DNA of 49,330 nt, counting the filler, from Bipalium vagum (Eukaryota), in assembly GCA_037834085.1 (NCBI GenBank). It is 2 parts of 2 records of this genome, joined end to end, with 100 filler letters (N's around TTAATTAATTAA, not from the genome) between each part and the next. Parts side by side here need not be neighbours in the genome. Positions count along the whole stretch, not along the records: positions 31,323 to 49,330 come from JBBMKC010044205.1; 1 more part is not named here. One strand, written 5' to 3'. Of this stretch, positions 13,915-46,289 are shown in pieces; position 1 is the first letter of the stretch, and each line of letters opens with the position of its first letter. The notes below the pieces were generated by a model. The model was not told the DNA's origin. It ran no database searches and was given only the letters and a program-made list of their open reading frames with translations. The translations under genes and the position numbers were made by a program.

Positions 13915-15234
13915 ATGTCAAACCAAAATGAAATCGAGATTGACAGCAAAACCAAGCGGTCTGCAGCCGAGGAGCTAAAGGAGGACCCCTCGCAGGTGAA
14001 CAATCACATTGAGAGTCTGCGAAGGCTGGTACAATCAATGCCACACCTTCAGTGTCCAACGGGTAGCACAACCTTGATTTTCAATAATGAAAGTGACCTT
14101 GTGATGCAGATGCACAATTTTTGCTCAGATTCCTAAGGGTCTCGAGATTTGATCTCGGCCAGGCTCAGAAAAGACTGGACAACTTTTGCACCGTGCGCAC
14201 ATCCTGGAGAGGCTTTCCAGACTACTTCAAGCTGTACAGCGTGGACCACTCCCTCATTGATGGTTTTCTAAGGATAAGGTGAAATTTATCTGATGTTGAT
14301 GGGTATTTCTTCTTATTTCGAAGCAGGTACTTCATTCCTCTTGGCAGGGTCGATTCCGGGGAGGAGGTTCTTTTACTCAGATTCGGTCGGTTGTCTTTTT
14401 TTATCATAAATGTTTACCATGAATATAATGATAATGTTTTCAACCTTGGTCTCGTTCAGAGGACTGGGATCCCGAGGCCTTGTCCCTGATCCGTCTAATC
14501 AACCTGTTCAACATGAGTCTGGACGTTCTGATGTCACAGGAGGGGTGCCAGACGCATGGCTTGAAAATTATCTACGACTTCTATGGAGGTAGTAGCAAGA
14601 ACTTGGAGGCCGTCTGCGACCCGGCGATGCTGAAGGCGGCCTACGTCTCTTTTCAGGTTTGCCTCACTTCCAATCCAACCCTCGCTGATAATATTAGTAG
14701 GATGCCTATCCCATGAGACTGAAGAGCCAGATCTTCTACAGCGACTCTGTTCTGCTTGAAAGGCTTTCTCACATGAGCATGTTCTTCTTCAACGAAAAAA
14801 TGAAAAAGAGGGTAAGTTCGGAAAGTAAGGAACATTATCAGTGATAATAGTCATGATAATAACATGATTACCTTTATCCAATGGTTCCGAATAACGATCG
14901 ACTCCCTAGGCGTCCTGGCTGCGGAATGATATCAGCGAGATAATCGAAATGGTCCCCGGACTGGAGAGAATCCTGCCGACGGAGTACAGGGGTCTTGGAG
15001 GTTCGCTGGACCATTGTGCTGGTAAGCGGTGGGTTCATCCGTGGAATGAACATCATTTGTGTTTCAGAGAGGTGGAATGAACGGTTTAAAGTGTTCTACG
15101 CCAATGGACACCCTTTCCAGTCAATCCATGTAGATGAGACAAAACGACCCGAGGAAACCTTGGACTACTTACCGAACTATGATGACTACAAGGGTACAAT
15201 TGACGAAGTGAAAAGGTCCAGCCCAGCGTCCTAG
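13915..15234 (+). CDS. CRAL-TRIO (Sec14-like; alpha-TTP/clavesin/retinol-binding pinta family) lipid-binding protein
   Basis: Seven exons joined by short GT-AG introns give A.EELKED...D AQFLLRFLRVSRFD..AQKRLDNF...QTHGLKIIYDF...FQ DAYPMRLK...FFNEKMKKR...ILPTEYRG.GG...IHVDETKRP. An alternative last intron would end the CDS near 15287. Confidence 0.92.
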
Positions 15235-20321: not shown

Positions 20322-23300
20322 TTACTGAACACTGTTACCACCATCGTTGAGGACGTGGGTCAGAACCTTTTTCCACAGAGATGGTTTGATAAGGAACTGT
20401 TTCGGTTTGAGTGCTTTGAGCATGTCCCGATTGAGACTAGTGCAGTAATTCATTGTCAGCGTGTCAACCTTTTCTGATCGCTTTTGAAGCGCGTGGAACA
20501 TCAGTCTGAATGAGAAAGGAAGATGACGATTATGGTTATTATTGTTGGTTAAAGAGAGATGAAGGAAAACAGAAAAATAGGAGAAAATGAATGAAACGAA
20601 GTAGAAGATATGTAGAAAGATAGAGACAATGAGAGAACATAATGTAAAAAAATAAATGAAAATACTGAGTTGAGAAAATAGAAAGAACGAGTGAAAGAAA
20701 GAAAAAATTAAAAAATATACCAAGATGTAAAGCAAGGAAGAAAGGAAATGAAAGAGAGCTTTTCTTAAGATGTTTTTCCATAAAATGAATCATTGAATAA
20801 TTCCAATAAAGAGATAAATAACAATATGAAAGAGGACAACTCACATTTCCTCATCCGATTGATAGAAACAGCTCAGTCTGGCAACTGAAAGCACTCTGTT
20901 AAAATCGACTTTGACATACTTCGTCTCGTTTTCCTCCTTTTCGTTCATCTTCGTCTCCTGTTTCTCGTTCAATTTGCTCGTGTTCTTGTCTCCAGTCTTC
21001 CCGTTCCCCTTTCTATCGACGTTTCGATCCTCCTGTTTCTCTTCCTTTACTTCTCTCTGGTGTCTTCGGACCATATTTGGAAAGAAAGACGCTAGGAAGC
21101 ACTTCTTCATCAAATTCTCTCTTTCTCGAGCCCTAACTTTCCATTGACCCATGATGAAGGCCGATTCTAATCCTCCATTCCCATAGCGACCAATACGATG
21201 ACCACGTCCATGACGCGGTTGGCGATATTGTAAACTGCGCACCCACGTCATCCAGGCGAGTCCTTCTTTGTCCAATCGGTTGCTGTCGCTGTTACTAAGT
21301 GTCGCTCTCATGGAAAAGTTCGATAACGATCGCAATTGGTTGAATATCCGTCGAGCGTATGCCAAACAAGAATAATTGATCGAATTCTCACTGCACCATT
21401 GACGACTGAATCTGTTCGATTGAGCTTCAAAGAAAATGTTTCGCAATCGAAACAAATCACCTTGTTTACTGTTAGTGTTACCGGTGATGTCAAGGCAGCA
21501 AGAGAAATTTTCATAGGCCTCTTTCCTTTTCAAGACGGCTTTAACCGACAACATGGCAACCGTTGCCAGCACATCATCACGACATGGTAAGCATGACGCT
21601 AAATAAACGACTTTTCCCAATTGGGGATCTAGCGGGAACACAGCGACCGATTCTCCGGCTGATGTCAAGCGACACTGGCGAAACGGATTACCAGGCGATT
21701 GGGAACCGTTACCAGTGGTCATTAAACTGAGGTCAATCAACATTTGCGTAGCTCTAATCCATTTTTCAGGATCGGGACGTGACAGAAACGGAAACCGATC
21801 AAAATCCATCGGCTCTAACGACTGTTCCACTCCCGTTGCCAAGGCCGTCGATGTGCGTCGCCACCAACCTGTCAACATCAAGACCAATGTCGCCAAATTA
21901 GTCTGGTCAATTTCCGGTTGTGGAAACTCGTCGAATGGTACAATATTAGCATTATCAGGAACGTCGGTGTCCATGACAACAGCGTCCCCATTGATGATGT
22001 GGTCATCATGGTCTTGCAAAGATAATTTGGAAATTTTCTCTATTTCATATTCGACTATAGATCGAAATACCATATCAATCGAGGGTTTTGAAAGTTCTTC
22101 GTTAGCATTACCATGGCTCCGCGATGCTGTGGAAGCGTTTCCGGTGAACCCCAATGACAAAGAGTCGTTGCTATAATTCGAAAATGTTGTGCAACCATTA
22201 TCAACTATTGTTTTATTGCCCAGAACACAACCGGCTTCATATAATCTATAGCATTTACCTCCTTTTCCTTTTCCTTTTCCTGTTGCAGCTCCAAGAAAAG
22301 GCGTGCGGCCGCAGCGACCTTTTCGCTGGTCGGCTTCGGCAACAGAGATCCAACGGGTTTCGTAGCGCTCGACGTTCGTGTCGTGGTCGTACATAAAGCG
22401 CTTGACGAGACCGGAGTCGATGACGAAGTCGACGCCGGGTATCGTGAGACTAGTCTCCGCGACGTTTGTGGCAACGATGAGCTTGCGACGCGATCCGTAG
22501 TCGAGGAACACGCGTTGCTTCTCGTCCTCGTCCATGCTGGCGAAAAAGGGGAGCGTGCGCGTCCGCGGCACGTTACGCAGGGCCTGACAGCACTTCCAGA
22601 TCTTGTCCTCGCCCGGCAAGAAGATGAGCACGTGGCCATGATGCGATTGGTCCGAAACGATTTCCAGGACAATGTTGCGGATGGCCGTGATATAATCGTT
22701 CGACGCCGAGCGCGGCAGCGGGCGATATATGACTTCTGTGACGTTCTGGTTTTTCTTGTTTACCGACGTATCAATGTTGATTACGGGACAATAGTTGTAG
22801 TATTTACGGATCTGATCAGTGCTCATTGTCGCAGACATGATGACGATCTTTGGGCGCGCTACCCCGGCGTCCTGATTCGACAACATTAGTTTCACTTGGG
22901 CCATCATCACATCGGCAAAAATTGACCTCTCATGAGCCTCATCGATGATTATGACGCTGTATTTCGATAGAACATCTTCGTATTGCATCGTCCGCACCAT
23001 CAGACCCGTTGTCATGAACAGAATCTTGGTATCTGGCGATCGCTTGTTGAAGAAACGAACGTGAAATCCGACCAGATCACCGGTTGCCTCCTGGTTCATT
23101 TCAGCGGACACACGATTGGCCAAAGAGATTGCAGCAACGCATCGTGGATGGAGACAAGCGATTAAGCCTTTCGAGCCGTAATCGGCTTCGTAGAGATATT
23201 GCGGAACTTGAGTCGACTTGCCACAACCCGTGTGGCCGGTTATGATGACGATGGGATGGTTTCGGACTTTGTCTAGAATTTCCGACTTGTAGTGGGTTAT

Positions 23301-23345
23301 TGGTAAGACGTCGATTGAACTATTCTTGTTCTTTTTACGGCCCAT
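20322..23345 (-). CDS. DEAH-box RNA helicase (Prp16/22/43-DHX33/35/40 class), about 894 aa, two exons
   Basis: Motifs GHTGCGKST, DEAHER, MSAT, LIFLPG, ATNVAETSLTIPG, QRKGRCGR, and HA2 domain FPLDPQLGK. Exon 1 is 23345-20845. A phase-2 intron at 20844-20506 (GTGAGT...TTCAG) joins exon 2, 20505-20322 (ILMFHAL...MNYCT, OB-fold end). Confidence 0.93.
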
Positions 23346-24662
23346 TACACTCTAACGTCCACTGGATTGAGGAATGTAAAATTCAAATTTTCGCAAACTT
23401 GGATAAATTTAAACAAAACTATTTAAACTAGTTCAGTTAAGCGGCGATAAAATTATGAAAACAATTGAAAATCATTTCGTCGTATTGTTTAAGTAATTTT
23501 CTTATTTACCGTTACATAATACTTTAAAACAGGTTTTAATTTTTTATCATATACCACAAAAAGAATTTTAATTTGTAAAAATTAAATAAATTTTTCAAAT
23601 AATTAAAATCAGCTAAATATTATTTTCAAAAATAACAATATCAATTAACATAACATAAAATTAATTTTCAATCTTGTGGTGGTTACATAATATTACTATT
23701 GTGACCTCAAATGGTGTTTATGGTGACATCATTCATTGTTAATAATGAACTTTAACATCCGACTGTAGTCCTACAGACTTTATTTTCTTATTAAAATATT
23801 ATATTATTAATTTTAACTGTTACAAGTAAACTAACACTATCAACACAATTAACATAATTTAAAAAGTTAAATTTTTAATGGTCACGTAATATTTAAAATA
23901 ATAATTATAATATGACGTCATAACCCACTGAATTTTTTATCACATCATTCACTGTTCTATCATCTAACAATTGACTTTTGTTTCACATATTACCTTTGCT
24001 TAAAATGTAATTTTTCATTTCTTTTTTATACTTTTTTTTCTTTCTTTACTTTTTTATTCTATTAAAATAAAAATTTATATTTTATGAAAATTATGATAAG
24101 ATTTTCTGAAATAATCGAAATTTTTTTTTTGATAAAAATCGATAATGTGAATTGAAGGGTTGACACAAATAATGTCCTAAACAATGATAAATGAAACAGG
24201 ATATAAACCTTATTTAAATACATGGGCGCCATCATTTTCAACAATGTCTCTCCAATTACAAATTAATTTTAAAATTTTTATAAAAATTAATTGACATTGA
24301 ATCAAGCAATTTTTGGATGACAATATTGTAACTGAAGAAACGAACTTTTTCTTAATCTTGGTAAGTTGCATTGCCTGAATGGATGATAGACAACAGTTGA
24401 AATGTAAAAGTTCGGTAATCTTTGCGGATAATAAAGTCAATTTGACCTCTTTCCAGAGCATTCCTAATAAGGTATGTGATATAAAATCAAAATAATAATT
24501 TTAATTTTAAATGCAACTTATATATAACATTGTAAGATCAGAAAATATAGGGAGATTGGAAAAAAGTGTTCAAAATTAAAAACCAGAATATTAGTATTAT
24601 AATAAATTGATTTTGTATATTTATTTTATTGGCTTAAATATTAATTTTATATATTAAATTGA

Positions 24663-28788: not shown

Positions 28789-29794
28789 CAGTGCAACTTC
28801 TATTTTGGACCAAAAAATTTCAAAAGTGGTCCAAAAATAGGAGTTGGTCCAATAGTAGACGTTAAGACATAAAAAGACATGTTAAGACATGTTTTATATG
28901 AACTTAAATGGATGTGATAATAGAAATTAAAAAAACAACAACTTCAAATTTAGATCTGACACGTTGACATTCTTAAAACATCGAGGTTTAGCATGCTTTC
29001 CTATAATAAAAGGTTTTTCTTTCAATCCAGCCATGCTGCAACATAATAACAGGGTTAACCTGTCTTTTTTTATTTTAATGACTTTACATTCTTCATGTGA
29101 TAATACGAAACTTCTGCTGCTGATTGATCTGTAGTATAAAGCGGTTTCGTTGCACTTATATACATTTTCAGCTGTATATTGACTAATTTTTTCTTTAATG
29201 ATATTTCGGAAGTTTTCAGCTTGAGAGTGATCAGCTGATTTCATTTCTCCGAATAAAACTTTCCAACTGATTTTATGCAGCCTCTTAAATTTATCCAACC
29301 AACCTGTCGATGCTTTGAAATCAATTCTATTTGTTTTGTTGCTATATTTAAGGCCATTCTTCTAATGTCCGACCATTTATCGGGAAGTTTCTCTCACGTA
29401 AACTTTGAAACATTTCTAAAATAGTACTGTCAAAGACTGTTCCTGAATTTTTTAAAGGATTTATTTCGATTTCAGTATAAATTCTTTGAATTTTTGACTT
29501 GCCAGTTCTATATTTCTTGCATAGCATTCGCTGGGAAGATTCTTCATTGCGAAGTTGCTCGGCAATATTATATTTATCTTCATATGATAATTTTTTACTC
29601 ATTCCTCATTTTGAAAATGTTATACCAAAATATTATTAAAACAAATTATTCAAATTTTTGGACCAAAAATTTTATTTTTTATATGAAAATATCGAGAAAA
29701 ATGATAATTACGAATTATTAGTCCAAATATGGAGTTTGGTCCGATTATAGAAGTGGTCCATTTCAGAAATTGGTCCAAAATAGAAGTTGCACTG
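28789..29794 (-). mobile_element. Internally deleted pogo/Tigger transposon with intact TIRs
   Basis: Perfect 25-bp TIRs CAGTGCAACTTCTATTTTGGACCAA flanked by TA, with GGTCCAA subterminal repeats. Carries a frameshifted CENP-B/Tigger-like ORF (PINGRTL...FKASTGWLDKFKR.H.I...GE...NETALYY...KDRLTLLLCC...GKHAKPRCFK) truncated before the end of the DDE domain. Confidence 0.95.
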
Positions 29795-31855: not shown

Positions 31856-32593
31856 TCAGTATTGTCCATGAAATCTGGTACATGTTCCATATTTTTTGTA
31901 TCTCTTAGCTAGGGATCCATCGACATAATTTGAGATGATACAGTATCTTTTTCCTGAATCACAGAAGTAGAATGACTTGCAAACCGAAGATTGTAAACAC
32001 CTAAAAATAGTAACATCGTGGACATGTATAATTTTTAAGTACTTTATGCCACACTTGATTTTGGAAATAGTTCGATATTCTGAATAGCATCCTTCATCAT
32101 CTTCATTGAAAATTTTCGAAATATCCGTCACAAATTTCATTTCTTCACTTCTTTTCGTTTTATCATGAACACAAACGGTCATTTGTTTGGAATTGCAGTT
32201 AACATCATCCAGACCGATTCCGTTCTGAAAAACAACACAATCCTGTCCACCTTCAATATTATTTGGTCTGTCTTGTCTCCATAACCCAGTATCTTTCATC
32301 TCACTACCATCAGATTGTAACCAGCCGAGTTTAGACAAATTTCTTTCTTTGTAAAGGTCATTGATACTCGTGAAATAAAAATCGTCCACTAAAGCCCTTC
32401 CTAAAAATTTTAAATCACTTTCGAATGGCAATCTTCCTTTGATCTGCGTACAAAGTTTCCAAGCCTCGCAAAATGTCACTTTAGTTTTATTTAAAAGAAT
32501 GCACGTATCATTGAAAAGTTCATAGGGCTTTTGACACATTCCTTGAGTTCTTTCAAGAAAAGAAAGCAAGACAAATATCTCAAAAATGTTCAT
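31856..32593 (-). CDS. Secreted C-type lectin domain + PAN/apple domain protein
   Basis: Signal peptide MNIFEIFVLLSFLERTQG. CTLD C..PY.LFN.TC...TFCEAWKLC....GRL...W..DRPNN..GGQDCV...LDDVNC....VC. Removing a 42-nt GT-AG intron (32042-32001) restores PAN-like SKIKCGIKCLQSSVCKSFYF...C. Confidence 0.9.
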   Translation of the reverse strand: MNIFEIFVLLSFLERTQGMCQKPYELFNDTCILLNKTKVTFCEAWKLCTQIKGRLPFESDLKFLGRALVDDFYFTSINDLYKERNLSKLGWLQSDGSEMKDTGLWRQDRPNNIEGGQDCVVFQNGIGLDDVNCNSKQMTVCVHDKTKRSEEMKFVTDISKIFNEDDEGCYSEYRTISKIKCGIKYLKIIHVHDVTIFRCLQSSVCKSFYFCDSGKRYCIISNYVDGSLAKRYKKYGTCTRFHGQY

Positions 32594-32998
32594 AAATAAT
32601 AATGGCTTTTTTCTGCCTTACAATTATATTTTTTTTCTCCCAGCCAATAAGAATCGCCGAATCAAAACAAAAATAATTAATTAATTAATTAAACAACAAA
32701 ATCTTTGCTCCTTGAATTCAGTTATATTTAGTTTGCAACCATGAACGTTTTATAATTATATAATTAACTGTTTTAATATTATTAATAATATTTAATAATT
32801 AACAACAAAAGTTAAACATTTTAATTTTTTATATTTTTATTTATAATAATTATAGAGAATGCTTATATTTGACACAAGGGATACCTTGTGACCATGGTTA
32901 ATTATTTTATTTTACTTTATTATTCCAGGTTATTTAATAATATCAAAAATTTTAAAGTAAATAAAAATAATTTTTACAAATAATCTTACAATAACTTA

Positions 32999-40039: not shown

Positions 40040-42372
40040 ATGACAGCATATTTACCTCCAAATTTATTGGCACTCTTCGCAGCAAGAGACCCTATAACAT
40101 TTTGGCCGAGTATAGAACGACCAAAACACCACAGAAATTTACCATACACCGGTATCGCACAATATGTCCACTTATTTGAAGATCCATCTGAAACTCCAGC
40201 GCCCCCTAAAGTTGAAACTCGAGAAGAAAAACGAGAAAGAAAAGTGATTTTTCAGTTTCATTCAATATTAAACTGATCTCACATTTGAAAATTTAGAGAA
40301 AGGAAAAAGCCGAACAAATAGCCTACAAAGTCGAGCAGGACTTGGCTCTCTGGAATCCCCACGAAATTCCCAGCGGAACAAAGGATGCTTACAAGACACT
40401 TTTCGTTGCACGAATCGTAAAATTATTGAAAAAAAATTCCATAAAATATATTTCTATTTTCTTTTTAGAATTATGACACAACTGAAAGCAAAATCCGACG
40501 AGAATTCGAAGCTTACGGACCGATTAAGATGATCAGAATGATAAAAAACATCAAAACTAACAAACCAAGAGGGTACTGTTTCATTGAGTATGAGCATGAG
40601 CGCGATATGCACGGTAAGTATTAAAAAGTGGAATGTCCCGGTTCTTAGGAACGCAGGGAACAAAAACGGTATTTTTACATAAACAGACTGACTTTTTTTA
40701 AAACAAAAAATTAATAAAAAACAAAAGTAAGACAAAAAACATCCTAAAGGAAAATATCTGTCAACAAAAACAATTATTGGAGAACGGTGGACAAGTGAAG
40801 AGTGTTTGTGTGATCGGCACTTGATCAGGTGTGTGGTTTGAAACGATTTTCTTTTATATCTACCGCGTTCACAATTTACATAATCGACAGGACGACGAAT
40901 TGGTATTTTGTTTTCGGCATAAATTTTACAAAATTATTTTTTATCGATTGAAAAAAATTAATCAATTTTATTATTAAAATTTATCAGTTTTAATTAGACT
41001 TAACTTTTTAGAGTTATTAACATTATTTTTATCGATTGAATATAATAATCAACTTTATTTAACTATTCATATCAATCGGTTATTTAAAGAGAATGATTAT
41101 GTAAATTGGGAATATCGATTTAACAATTATTATTGATTGATAATAATCATAATTGTTTTTTGGTTCCCGCGTGGATTTTCTTTTATCGATTTGATCCAAA
41201 TAGAGAGACGTTAATCAACACTGTGTTACATCTGGTAGGTAAGTTGCTCTGCCATCTGATGACGGTAAGGTTTTGGAAACTTTATTGGCTTCTTTTTGTG
41301 TGTGTGTGTGTTTGATTGTCTCTATTTTTGTGACATCTCTTAAATTGTTTCTTTTTCTTTAGATGCCTTTGAGCCATACGGCCTCTAGAGCATCCCTTGA
41401 CAATTAACCTTTCGTAAACTTATCGCGACAAAAGAAATAGAGAGAGAAATATTGATTTGTGAGAGGGTCTTTGTGTGTGTATAAGAGAGTTAAGGTTTGT
41501 ACACATGGTAGGTGCTGATTAATATAAATATATGTATAAGAACATAATTTCAATATATACGATCGATTAGTTTCGATTTGAAATTGAAAATTCATTTAAA
41601 TTATTTATTATATCCAGCCGCTTATAAGAACGCCGATGGAAAGAAAATTGACAGTCATCGCGTTCTTGTCGACGTAGAACGTGCACGAACCGTGAAGAAT
41701 TGGAGACCTAGAAGATTGGGTAAGATTTTTAAAATATTTTTATTGGGATAAGAAAATTTTCTAGTTTTAATGTTTAAAATTTAAAAAATTCTCTCGATTT
41801 ACAGGTGGCGGATTGGGAAATACTCGTCGTGGACCGCCGGAACAAAATTCAAAGTACACAACACGTGATGAGCCTCGTGAACGAGACACCGAGAGAAGAC
41901 GACGAAGTCGATCGAAAGAAAAGGAGCGACGAGACAGAGACAAGGATCGAGAACGAGATAGAAATCGCGACAGAGACCGAGAGCGAGATCATAAAGAATC
42001 TCGTGGTGATCGGTCGAAACGGAAAAGTAATTTTTAGTCGTTGAAAATTCTATCAATTTATTGATGATTATTGATTTTTTTACATAATCAATAAACATCA
42101 AATTTTGGTTTTCTATTTTTGTAACGGATGTTTCTTACGTCCCTGATTGTGTTCTATGGATTTTTCATTGATCCGTTCCAGGAAGTCGTTCCCGAGAGCG
42201 TCACAAGCACAGGAGTAGATCGCGAGGAAAGTCTAAGGACAGATCAACAGATCGATCCAAAGACAAGAAGCAAAAGAAGGATCGAGATCGTGATAGAGAC
42301 CGGGAGCGGAAAAACGGCGTTGCAACGACAGCAGTCCGTCAATTCGGAGAATATCTGGTGGACATTGAGTAG
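40040..42372 (+). CDS. SNRNP70: U1 small nuclear ribonucleoprotein 70 kDa
   Basis: Exons 40040-40243, 40297-40416, 40469-40613, 41618-41719, 41805-42026 and 42182-42372 give [18 protein letters not shown]...[24 protein letters not shown]...[56 protein letters not shown] plus an RS/RD/RE tail. Confidence 0.98.
41204..41263 (+). promoter_or_regulatory. Candidate poison exon with clustered 5' splice sites in the long U1-70K intron
   Basis: A pyrimidine tract and AG at 41203 give G|AG AGA CGT TAA, an immediate premature stop. Donor-like sites GTAGGT, GTAAGT and GTAAGG lie at about 41235-41270. Confidence 0.6.
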
Positions 42373-43482: not shown

Positions 43483-44757
43483 AAATCTAAGGGTGGAAAT
43501 AAAACAAATCCAGTTCACAATTTTACAGGTCTAGGAACAAATGTTGACAAGGGTTTAGAAAACTATGAAGAAATAATAGAAAATTTTGAAGACAATAAAG
43601 ATTTATCAATTCTCCCAATTCCAAAATCTGATTCCATTCCAATAAATCGAGTTGATCAAGCAGCAATGAAACATGGTGTAAAATATATGTCAACAAATTT
43701 AGAAGATCGTCATATTGCAGATGTAGAAATGATTCATGAAATGAACAACATTCAAAATCCAACTCCAAGAGAAAAATTAGAAAGAGCAATAGTAAAATTA
43801 ATTATGAAAGGAAAGATTGCTCTATGTCTTGGTTTAGAAAGAACTTCCAAGACGCTCGCCAATGAAAAACTTTTTGAAAATTCTAAAATTCCTTCTCCAG
43901 AAAAAAGTAAACAATTAGCAAATGAACTTCATAAAGAATTAAGAAAAACTAAAAATTACGTAAAAGTAAAGGTTAATAATAAAGATGATATTTGGTCAGC
44001 AGACTTAACTTTTGTTCCAGCAGAAAAAGATTATAAAATAATTTTAACAATTATTGATTTATTTACAAGATTTGCTTTTGCAGTTCCTTTAAAAAATAAA
44101 ACTGGAAATTCTATAACAGATGCCTTTGATGAAATATTTTGTAATTACCAAAGAAAACCTGAAAAACTATGGGTTGATAAAGGAACAGAATTTTATAATA
44201 AAACTTTTGAAGAATTTTGTGATGATAATGAAATAAAAATTTACTCTACAGAGAATGAAGGAAAAGCTGTTGCCATTGAAAGATTTAATAGAACTCTAAA
44301 AAATTTAATGTTTAAAAAATTTAAAGAACAAGGAAATAGAAAATGGATTCATTTAATACAAAATTTAATAAATTTTTATAATAATAAAATTCATTCATCA
44401 ATTGGAATGACACCGAGGGAAGCGGTTAAGCGAAGCGCTTCTCCTAATGATGCTTCTAAAAATCCAGAAAAACTAAAAGTAAAAAATAATGAAAATATAA
44501 ATCCCTTAACTTTAAAACCAAAATTCCATATTGTTGATCATGTAAGAATTTTTAAATATAAAAATAAATTTGAAAAAGGATATACAGCAAAATGGACTGA
44601 AGAAATTTTTATCATAAATAAAATTTCTTTTACTTCTCCAATTGTTTATGGAATTATTGATAAAAATGGAAAAGAAATAATTGGAAGATTTTATGAGAAT
44701 GAATTACAGAAAAGTAGTTTTAAACTGGAATTTATGTTGAAAAATTATAATAAATAA
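43483..44757 (+). CDS. Polinton integrase (rve, DDE) with an N-terminal parvovirus-type phospholipase A2-like domain
   Basis: The frame is open from 43483 (first ATG 43666). PLA2-like HNFTGLGT...PINRVDQAAMKHGVKY...RHIAD. Integrase LANELHK, WSADL, IDLFTRFAFAVPLKNK, LWVDKGTEF, IERFNRTLK, YN...HSSIGMTP, FEKGY...WT.EIF, G.FY..ELQK. Confidence 0.9.
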   Translation, partial: KSKGGNKTNPVHNFTGLGTNVDKGLENYEEIIENFEDNKDLSILPIPKSDSIPINRVDQAAMKHGVKYMSTNLEDRHIADVEMIHEMNNIQNPTPREKLERAIVKLIMKGKIALCLGLERTSKTLANEKLFENSKIPSPEKSKQLANELHKELRKTKNYVKVKVNNKDDIWSADLTFVPAEKDYKIILTIIDLFTRFAFAVPLKNKTGNSITDAFDEIFCNYQRKPEKLWVDKGTEFYNKTFEEFCDDNEIKIYSTENEGKAVAIERFNRTLKNLMFKKFKEQGNRKWIHLIQNLINFYNNKIHSSIGMTPREAVKRSASPNDASKNPEKLKVKNNENINPLTLKPKFHIVDHVRIFKYKNKFEKGYTAKWTEEIFIINKISFTSPIVYGIIDKNGKEIIGRFYENELQKSSFKLEFMLKNYNK

Positions 44758-46091: not shown

Positions 46092-46289
46092 ACACACCGA
46101 AGGTGCTAGAGCTGAAGGCTCGTTTTCCCAACAGAAAAATTTTCCCCAATTTTAAAAAATAGCCCTATAAAATTTAATTTCATAATTTAAATAGATGGGG
46201 TATTCCCAATGCCCTCATTAAAATTAATTTCATAATTAAAAATGGTATAGGTTTGAACTACATCATTATTTTAATTTGATTTTTAAAAA

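Follow-up and report, generated by a model that had tools for sequence, protein, structure and literature searches.

A long intron in the U1-70K gene of the flatworm Bipalium vagum as a candidate U1-sensing off-switch

In this study we describe a U1-70K (SNRNP70) gene of Bipalium vagum with one unusually long intron that carries candidate regulatory splice sites. The gene lies in a stretch of 49,330 nt from assembly GCA_037834085.1 (hereafter the window; two parts joined by filler letters). Its protein bears the Pfam domains U1snRNP70_N and RRM_1, and the RRM exon aligns to human U1-70K residues 112-158. Exon 1 finds its best named matches in tapeworms and flukes, and a tree of 31 rows places the protein with Macrostomum, one unlabelled sequence and parasitic flatworms (support 97/95) and outside the parasitic flatworm clade, which points to a probably free-living flatworm. 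The five introns, all GT-AG, measure 53, 52, 1004, 85 and 155 nt in order, which bears out the outlier length that a preliminary description had claimed for intron 3 (1004 nt against 52-155 nt for the others of the gene). Short introns appear to be the local norm, since the 10 other introns of the window, those of U1-70K and of a hand-annotated CRAL-TRIO family gene (13915-15234, plus strand; six introns of 44-98 nt, donors mostly weak), span 44-155 nt; the earlier claim of genome-wide intron shrinkage has these 10 introns, all from the window, as its basis. The features of the locus are as follows.

40040..42372, plus strand: U1-70K (SNRNP70) gene, six exons, 327 aa, open frame
40040-40243, 40297-40416, 40469-40613, 41618-41719, 41805-42026 and 42182-42372, plus strand: U1-70K exons
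40611..40621, plus strand: productive donor, -11.2 kcal/mol, the top U1 pairing of the 11 annotated donors in the window
40614..41617, plus strand: long intron 3, candidate regulatory intron, 1004 nt, GT..AG, phase 1 after ERDMH
40868-40885 with 41095-41112, plus strand: 18-nt inverted repeat, 94% complementary
40987..41013, plus strand: extra candidate acceptors 40987, 40997 and 41011, all leading to stops; 41011 ranks 1 of 43
41184..41214, plus strand: candidate acceptor 41203 and premature stop 41212-41214, reading E-R-R-stop (TAA)
41232..41272, plus strand: donor cluster 1, GT at 41235, 41239 and 41265 (-10.4, -10.5 and -8.7 kcal/mol)
41297..41311, plus strand: (TG)7.5 run upstream of acceptor 41362, possible CELF-type site
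41343..41388, plus strand: candidate acceptor 41362 and premature stop 41386-41388 (TAG), rank 2 of 43
41363..41507, plus strand: cassette 2, 132 nt to B and 145 nt to C, candidate counterpart of vertebrate exon 7a
41492..41515, plus strand: donor pair B (GT 41495, weak) and C (GT 41508, stronger), -7.4 and -9.9 kcal/mol
41598..41617, plus strand: productive acceptor of the gene model

Several other frames were noted in the window. An intact rve integrase ORF of 424 aa (43483-44757, plus strand) lies 1.1 kb downstream of U1-70K and is followed by AT-rich ORFs at 46287, 47488 and 48462 without Pfam support; we assume that these together may represent a Polinton/Maverick-type element. An uninterrupted DEAH-box helicase frame of 836 aa with low-complexity insertions (20841-23351, minus strand) has 47-50% GC against 25-35% GC for the window and is possibly a retrocopy or of foreign origin. 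LTR element fragments with zinc-knuckle and aspartyl-protease (6848-7931, plus strand), a Tc5/DDE_1 transposase fragment (28927-29361, minus strand), an ORF with coiled-coil and MATH domain (4615-5760, plus strand) and a C-type lectin ORF (31856-32617, minus strand) were found as well.

For vertebrates, the available text of PMC3798272 describes in intron 7 of U1-70K a U1C-dependent acceptor that brings in a stop and requires U1 to be bound to A, B and C, three donors close by, where donor A or B alone suffices for U1C dependence. In the resulting exon 7a product the remainder of the intron usually stays unspliced, and the message is removed by nonsense-mediated decay (NMD); in human minigenes, inclusion through C became more favoured when site C and the following acceptor were brought closer together (PMC3798272). 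The host gene in the window is the same, U1-70K, and so is the intron position. The preliminary description had equated the two at ERDMH, rightly: intron 3 corresponds to human intron 7, splits the RRM and is in phase 1, and the published primers stop at ERDMH plus 1 nt. Mammal-type isoforms (P0032, P0096 and P0117) have ERDMH-STTQLACS, as the published exon 7a does in translation.

By frame reading, retention of intron 3 leads to a stop at 40622, and with all internal acceptors tested, as with full retention, the frame ends at residue 157-205. Two acceptors had been put forward before, 41203 and 41362, and both are present with their stops, so that the exon 7a arrangement of an internal acceptor with a premature in-frame stop behind it is found twice (41362, then 41386; 41203, then 41212). 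Acceptor 41362 has the best pyrimidine tract of the intron (13 of 14 pyrimidines), better than that of the productive acceptor. Acceptor 41203, the nearest AG upstream of donor cluster 1, is weak, ranking 14 of the 43 AGs with a score still within the range of real acceptors. The earlier list was also incomplete, as it missed the candidates at 40987-41013 and another at 41089, in frame with 41011, all of which likewise give stops. A weight matrix, built from only 11 introns, puts 41011 first and 41362 second among the 43 AGs, both above the productive acceptor. The stops reached from the internal acceptors lie more than 300 nt upstream of two later junctions. As for structure, the region of the inverted repeat (40868..41112) folds with a z of -2.36, reached by 3 of 100 shuffles, and with a pair probability of about 0.7 for 13 pairs; in this folding model the repeat could close a loop that holds the AT-rich middle and the candidate acceptors at 40890-41091. 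The fold of the cassette region (41150-41620) is unremarkable (z -0.87). A match to an Rfam microRNA family at 41106-41171 scored 23.9 bits against a cut-off of 66.5 and was taken as chance.

The donor-like sites that had been reported are all there, with GT at 41235, 41239, 41265, 41495 and 41508, and we noted a sixth, weak one at 41459. Among the 58 GT sites of the intron, the five named ones are five of the six strongest in U1 pairing. Sites 41239, 41235 and 41508 (-10.5, -10.4 and -9.9 kcal/mol) outpair 8 of the 11 annotated constitutive donors of the window, and a pairing of -10 kcal/mol is reached by only 10 of the 4533 GT sites in the whole window. The motif GGTARG occurs four times on the sense strand of the intron and never on the antisense strand; dinucleotide shuffles hold 0.22 copies on average, and none of 5000 reaches four. 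Donors 41235 and 41508 have a common 14-nt context (41227-41240 and 41500-41513, 86% identity). The idea that one cassette is a tandem duplicate of the other was rejected, the alignment being at chance level (reached by 285 of 1000 shuffles and by 166 of 290 neighbour pairs). UG repeats near the second acceptor, also part of the preliminary description, do exist (a second (TG) run lies at 41472-41479), and planarian BRULI is described in the available text of PMC4978528 as preferring UGU; however, among comparator introns longer than 500 nt they are conserved in 1 of 27, and we dropped them as a core of the switch. A mimic of the U1 stem-loop to which U1-70K binds had no match within 2 mismatches in intron 3.

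We compared the intron with those of other animals by scanning metagenome contigs for the codons of [YF]EHERDMH, a scan that misses lineages with other residues at this place. It yielded 97 loci, of which 56 run into the intron, 30 are normally spliced and 6 are joined elsewhere; the rest (4 non-U1-70K, 1 cut off) had been removed before counting. The intron-bearing loci form 38 independent groups, 16 of them with a complete intron of 249-4326 nt. A metazoan comparison of the intron position had been proposed as a check, and in it a long intron at ERDMH indeed recurs across animals. Where the gene start is covered, upstream introns total 50-350 nt in 6 of 11 loci, against 249-1783 nt for the intron considered here; three of the 11 have no upstream intron and two have long ones. 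Donor arrays seem to be general in U1-70K introns, because GGTARG occurs 91 times in sense and 4 times in antisense in the 16 complete introns. Since long introns and donor clusters are both common among the comparators, neither is special to this genome.

Within these arrays one arrangement stands out, a pair G/GTTTGTAT ... G/GTAAG (slash, splice point) with a spacing of 12-18 nt, corresponding to sites B and C. It is present in 14 of the 38 groups and in 9 of the 16 complete introns, is missing from the other 7, and does not occur on the antisense strand in 56,673 nt. The best protein matches of the loci that carry this module are, by coarse labels, insects, a copepod, bivalves, crinoids and vertebrates. 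Site A, by comparison, was found in only one of the 14 module-bearing loci, the fish-like L056. The pair lies near the 3' end of the intron in the window and in a 5' or central position in the nine complete module-bearing introns. Locus L053 has site B in duplicate, 26 nt upstream of its B/C pair, at about 215-260 nt into the intron. Local alignment of intron 3 with 36 comparator introns or retained parts gave no consistent match. Three alignments beat all 40 shuffles, at three different places in AT-rich or TG-repeat sequence, and were discarded as evidence of homology.

How well does the window pair agree with this module? Read by eye against Figure S2 of PMC3798272, site B is AGG/GTTTGTAT in human and AAG/GTTTGTAC in the window, and site C is TGG/GTAAGA in human and ATG/GTAGGT in the window. 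From B to C, 13 of 22 letters agree with the fish-like locus. On a matrix of the 14 loci the window pair reaches 11.6 bits, against 24-35 bits for the loci themselves (leave-one-out), which places it second in the window; this matrix test was not significant (142 of 2000 intron shuffles). By a mismatch count chosen after the matrix test, 15 of the 17 core letters agree, a value reached by 4 of 5000 intron shuffles, and the pair is the only site with at least 14 core letters on either strand of the window. The three departures from the 14-locus consensus leave U1 pairing in place. The two tests disagree, and we tentatively take the window pair as a diverged homolog of the animal B/C module.

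Taken together, the likeness to the vertebrate switch covers gene, intron position and phase, an internal acceptor followed by an early stop, and, tentatively, a weak B-like donor with a stronger C-like one at the human spacing of 13 nt. There are also differences. Site A of the vertebrate switch, the donor most used in human, should lie 12-13 nt before B, where the window has no GT. The cassette extends 132/145 nt to B/C in the window and 72/85 nt in human; the B/C pair lies 110-123 nt from the productive acceptor, while the human intron is 3.2 kb long with its acceptor at +642. The window also adds an upstream cluster of three stronger donors, and the flanks are not alignable. Because site A is absent and a donor cluster is added, we regard the intron as a variant that stands outside the A/B/C type and probably works like the vertebrate switch. 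A tandem design of two poison cassettes had been suggested earlier; in the light of the donor pair, the counterpart of exon 7a is likely to be the second cassette (41363-41507), and not the first with its three donors.

Are internal acceptors used in other animals? Six transcript-like contigs (L009, L012, L020, L025, L039 and L090) out of the 36 spliced at the ERDMH donor join ERDMH plus 1 nt to internal sequence and reach a stop within 1-18 codons. For L012, L020 and L025 an intron-bearing locus shows a pyrimidine-rich AG in front of the joined sequence (in L025 the exon is cut short and its identity check failed). L020 has 74 nt between this acceptor and B/C and keeps what remains of the intron, as in human, and in L090 a short stop-bearing cassette is fully spliced in. 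L009 and L025 retain 970 and 1640 nt with 15 and 26 donor-like sites, arrays far above that of the window. The contig closest to our case is L039, which is tapeworm-like (87% to Schistocephalus P0160), has its other introns spliced out and retains 467 nt. Its donors stand 397, 381, 362, 134 and 120 nt before the productive acceptor, those of the window 383, 379, 353, 123 and 110 nt, so that after one common shift all five agree within 10 nt. The best of 19 other comparators agrees in three of five, and random two-cluster placement equals the match in 103 of 20000 trials; the match concerns one comparator, was spotted before testing and leaves out the weak window site 41459. The sequences of window and L039 are not alignable (clusters, 726 and 252 of 2000; overall, 298 of 300). 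Schistocephalus P0160 has a truncated tail resembling that of L039, which suggests a common tapeworm poison acceptor. In 31 of 110 screened U1-70K entries a non-canonical tail, unlike donor read-through, stands right after ERDMH; many of these may be poison isoforms, in arthropods and others, and some gene-model errors. The window's own poison tails are absent from the truncated U1-70K proteins among the screened database matches.

We infer, with a probability of about 0.62, that intron 3 is an inherited U1-sensing off-switch for U1-70K. The preliminary description had left it between a retained and a convergent circuit; because the B/C pair recurs in 14 of 38 animal groups and a B/C-like pair stands in the window, the circuit looks inherited, and convergence is the less favoured half of that statement. 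All four steps of the mechanism proposed here are carried over from the vertebrate one. When intact U1 is plentiful, it would bind the spare donors and activate an internal acceptor, giving a stop-bearing U1-70K message that would be destroyed by NMD or kept in the nucleus. U1 at B/C (41495/41508) would define acceptor 41362 and hence the cassette 41363-41494 or 41363-41507. No more than 110-123 nt then separate B/C from the productive acceptor, a routine intron size here, which should make full inclusion easier than it is in human. U1 at cluster 1 (41235-41265) would activate 41203, or else 41089 or 41011, with the rest of the intron kept as in the human and L039 messages. Both products would stop at residue 159-205, within the RRM, and NMD is expected because two exon junctions lie far downstream of the stops. 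When U1C or U1-70K becomes scarce, the weak site B would fail before the others, 40614 would be joined to 41617 and the protein would be restored.

The main rival of an inherited switch is a pure decoy, in which the spare donors compete for the productive acceptor and the intron is retained or detained while the internal acceptors are hardly used. We consider it unlikely as the whole explanation, and it may coexist with the switch. Retention would give a stop by itself (40622), site C lies close to the productive acceptor (110 nt), and blocking the decoy donors of human SNRNP70 lowered retention from about 35% to 9% according to the available text of PMC7373989. Comparator loci L014, L059 and L064 hold the long intron and lack upstream introns, as retained-intron transcripts would, although they could instead be genes whose upstream introns were lost. 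Speaking against a mere decoy, internal acceptors are used in six contigs of other animals, one of them tapeworm-like, and the tract of 41362 is better than that of the productive acceptor. Less likely again is a decaying relic or chance assembly, that is, a former switch whose sites no longer work. The three consensus departures, the non-significant matrix score, the absent site A and the flanks that cannot be aligned would fit such decay, but the departures preserve U1 pairing (-7.4 and -9.9 kcal/mol), the intron, AT-rich as it is, still has four strong donors, all in sense, against an expectation of 0.22, and it exceeds its neighbours 6- to 20-fold in length.

A working switch might also have been rebuilt independently in flatworms. 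Unproductive splicing of splicing factors is reportedly flexible in evolution, which would make such a new origin conceivable, U1-binding sites of whatever origin come to share one short consensus, and the B/C pair lies near the 3' end here and in a 5' or central position in the nine complete module introns. Since the intron position is identical and 14 groups as well as human share a non-optimal B that is followed by C at 12-18 nt, we find independent origin improbable. Telescripting, with the sites guarding a long AT-rich intron against premature cleavage and polyadenylation, seems very improbable: poly(A)-signal hexamers exist at 40620, 40713 and 40973, and PMC11489095 takes up what cryptic donors do in long introns, but all three hexamers are upstream of the clusters and less than 360 nt from a strong real donor, and neither the intron length nor the acceptors would be explained. 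Hardly credible, finally, is a transposon insertion that made the intron long and brought the sites as passengers. The AT-rich middle (16-19% GC) with its inverted repeats and the mobile-element fragments elsewhere in the window could be read in this way. Against it, all 16 complete comparators have a long intron at this place (249-4326 nt), intron 3 has no long ORF and no copy elsewhere in the window beyond AT-rich chance matches, and the longest other piece on the stretch is 39 nt (contigs of one run, 85% likeness). That run has the stretch as a single identical contig and may be where this DNA comes from, so it lends no independent support. A transposon had been named at the outset as what would overturn the regulatory reading; in the window and the contigs of one run we saw no transposon signal, neither copies nor terminal repeats with a target duplication nor a mobile ORF. 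A young transposon is therefore unlikely; an old, decayed element is possible.

Beyond the off-switch itself, one may speculate that B/C formed the original core of the U1 sensor in animals and predates site A, with a two-stage flatworm design built around it in which spacing and not sequence is selected and two U1 thresholds lead to two products. We regard this extension as doubtful. If true, the design would consist of two clusters with five U1 sites in all, lying about 110-135 and 350-400 nt before the productive acceptor, and a free-living flatworm and a tapeworm would have preserved these distances while losing all alignable sequence.

Several related systems are known. A SNRNP70 decoy exon in erythroblasts (PMC7373989, available text) likewise has intronic donors in the same intron at which U1 binding lowers productive splicing; it was demonstrated by antisense blocking in human cells, whereas the window was studied as sequence alone. 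In plants, the sixth intron of U1-70K is retained in a U1C-dependent unproductive isoform, for which a conserved loop has been proposed, and the retained-intron isoform falls upon U1-C knockdown in Arabidopsis (PMC11489095). For the plant gene retention is described, not an internal acceptor, and the likeness is one of description. U11-48K and U11/U12-65K are under a feedback in which the snRNP on tandem unused donors activates an upstream acceptor in the message of its own protein (PMC3798272); with the minor spliceosome, other genes and other sites involved, this is an analogy only. A literature search among papers outside subscription found no invertebrate or flatworm paper on the U1C/U1-70K loop, and a search by gene name found no SNRNP70-relevant content in PMC13247117, PMC12179342 and PMC12862383. 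The loop is established for vertebrates, with indications of it in Arabidopsis; judging from the features of the intron, it likely extends, as a variant, to flatworms. The flatworm case bridges two known points and adds no new principle. A non-optimal donor motif that recurs in one intron across animals points to B/C, not A, as the functional core, and the 1-kb intron offers a compact system in a phylum with RNAi. A wider parallel is given by the ultraconserved pseudo-5' splice sites of ENOX1/Enox, where a short U1-binding intronic motif is shared from invertebrates to vertebrates; that site silences an essential exon, unlike the U1-70K switch (PMC13100119, available text). In the supplements of the same paper that were accessible, SNRNP70 appears once, in a sheet of human conserved sites.
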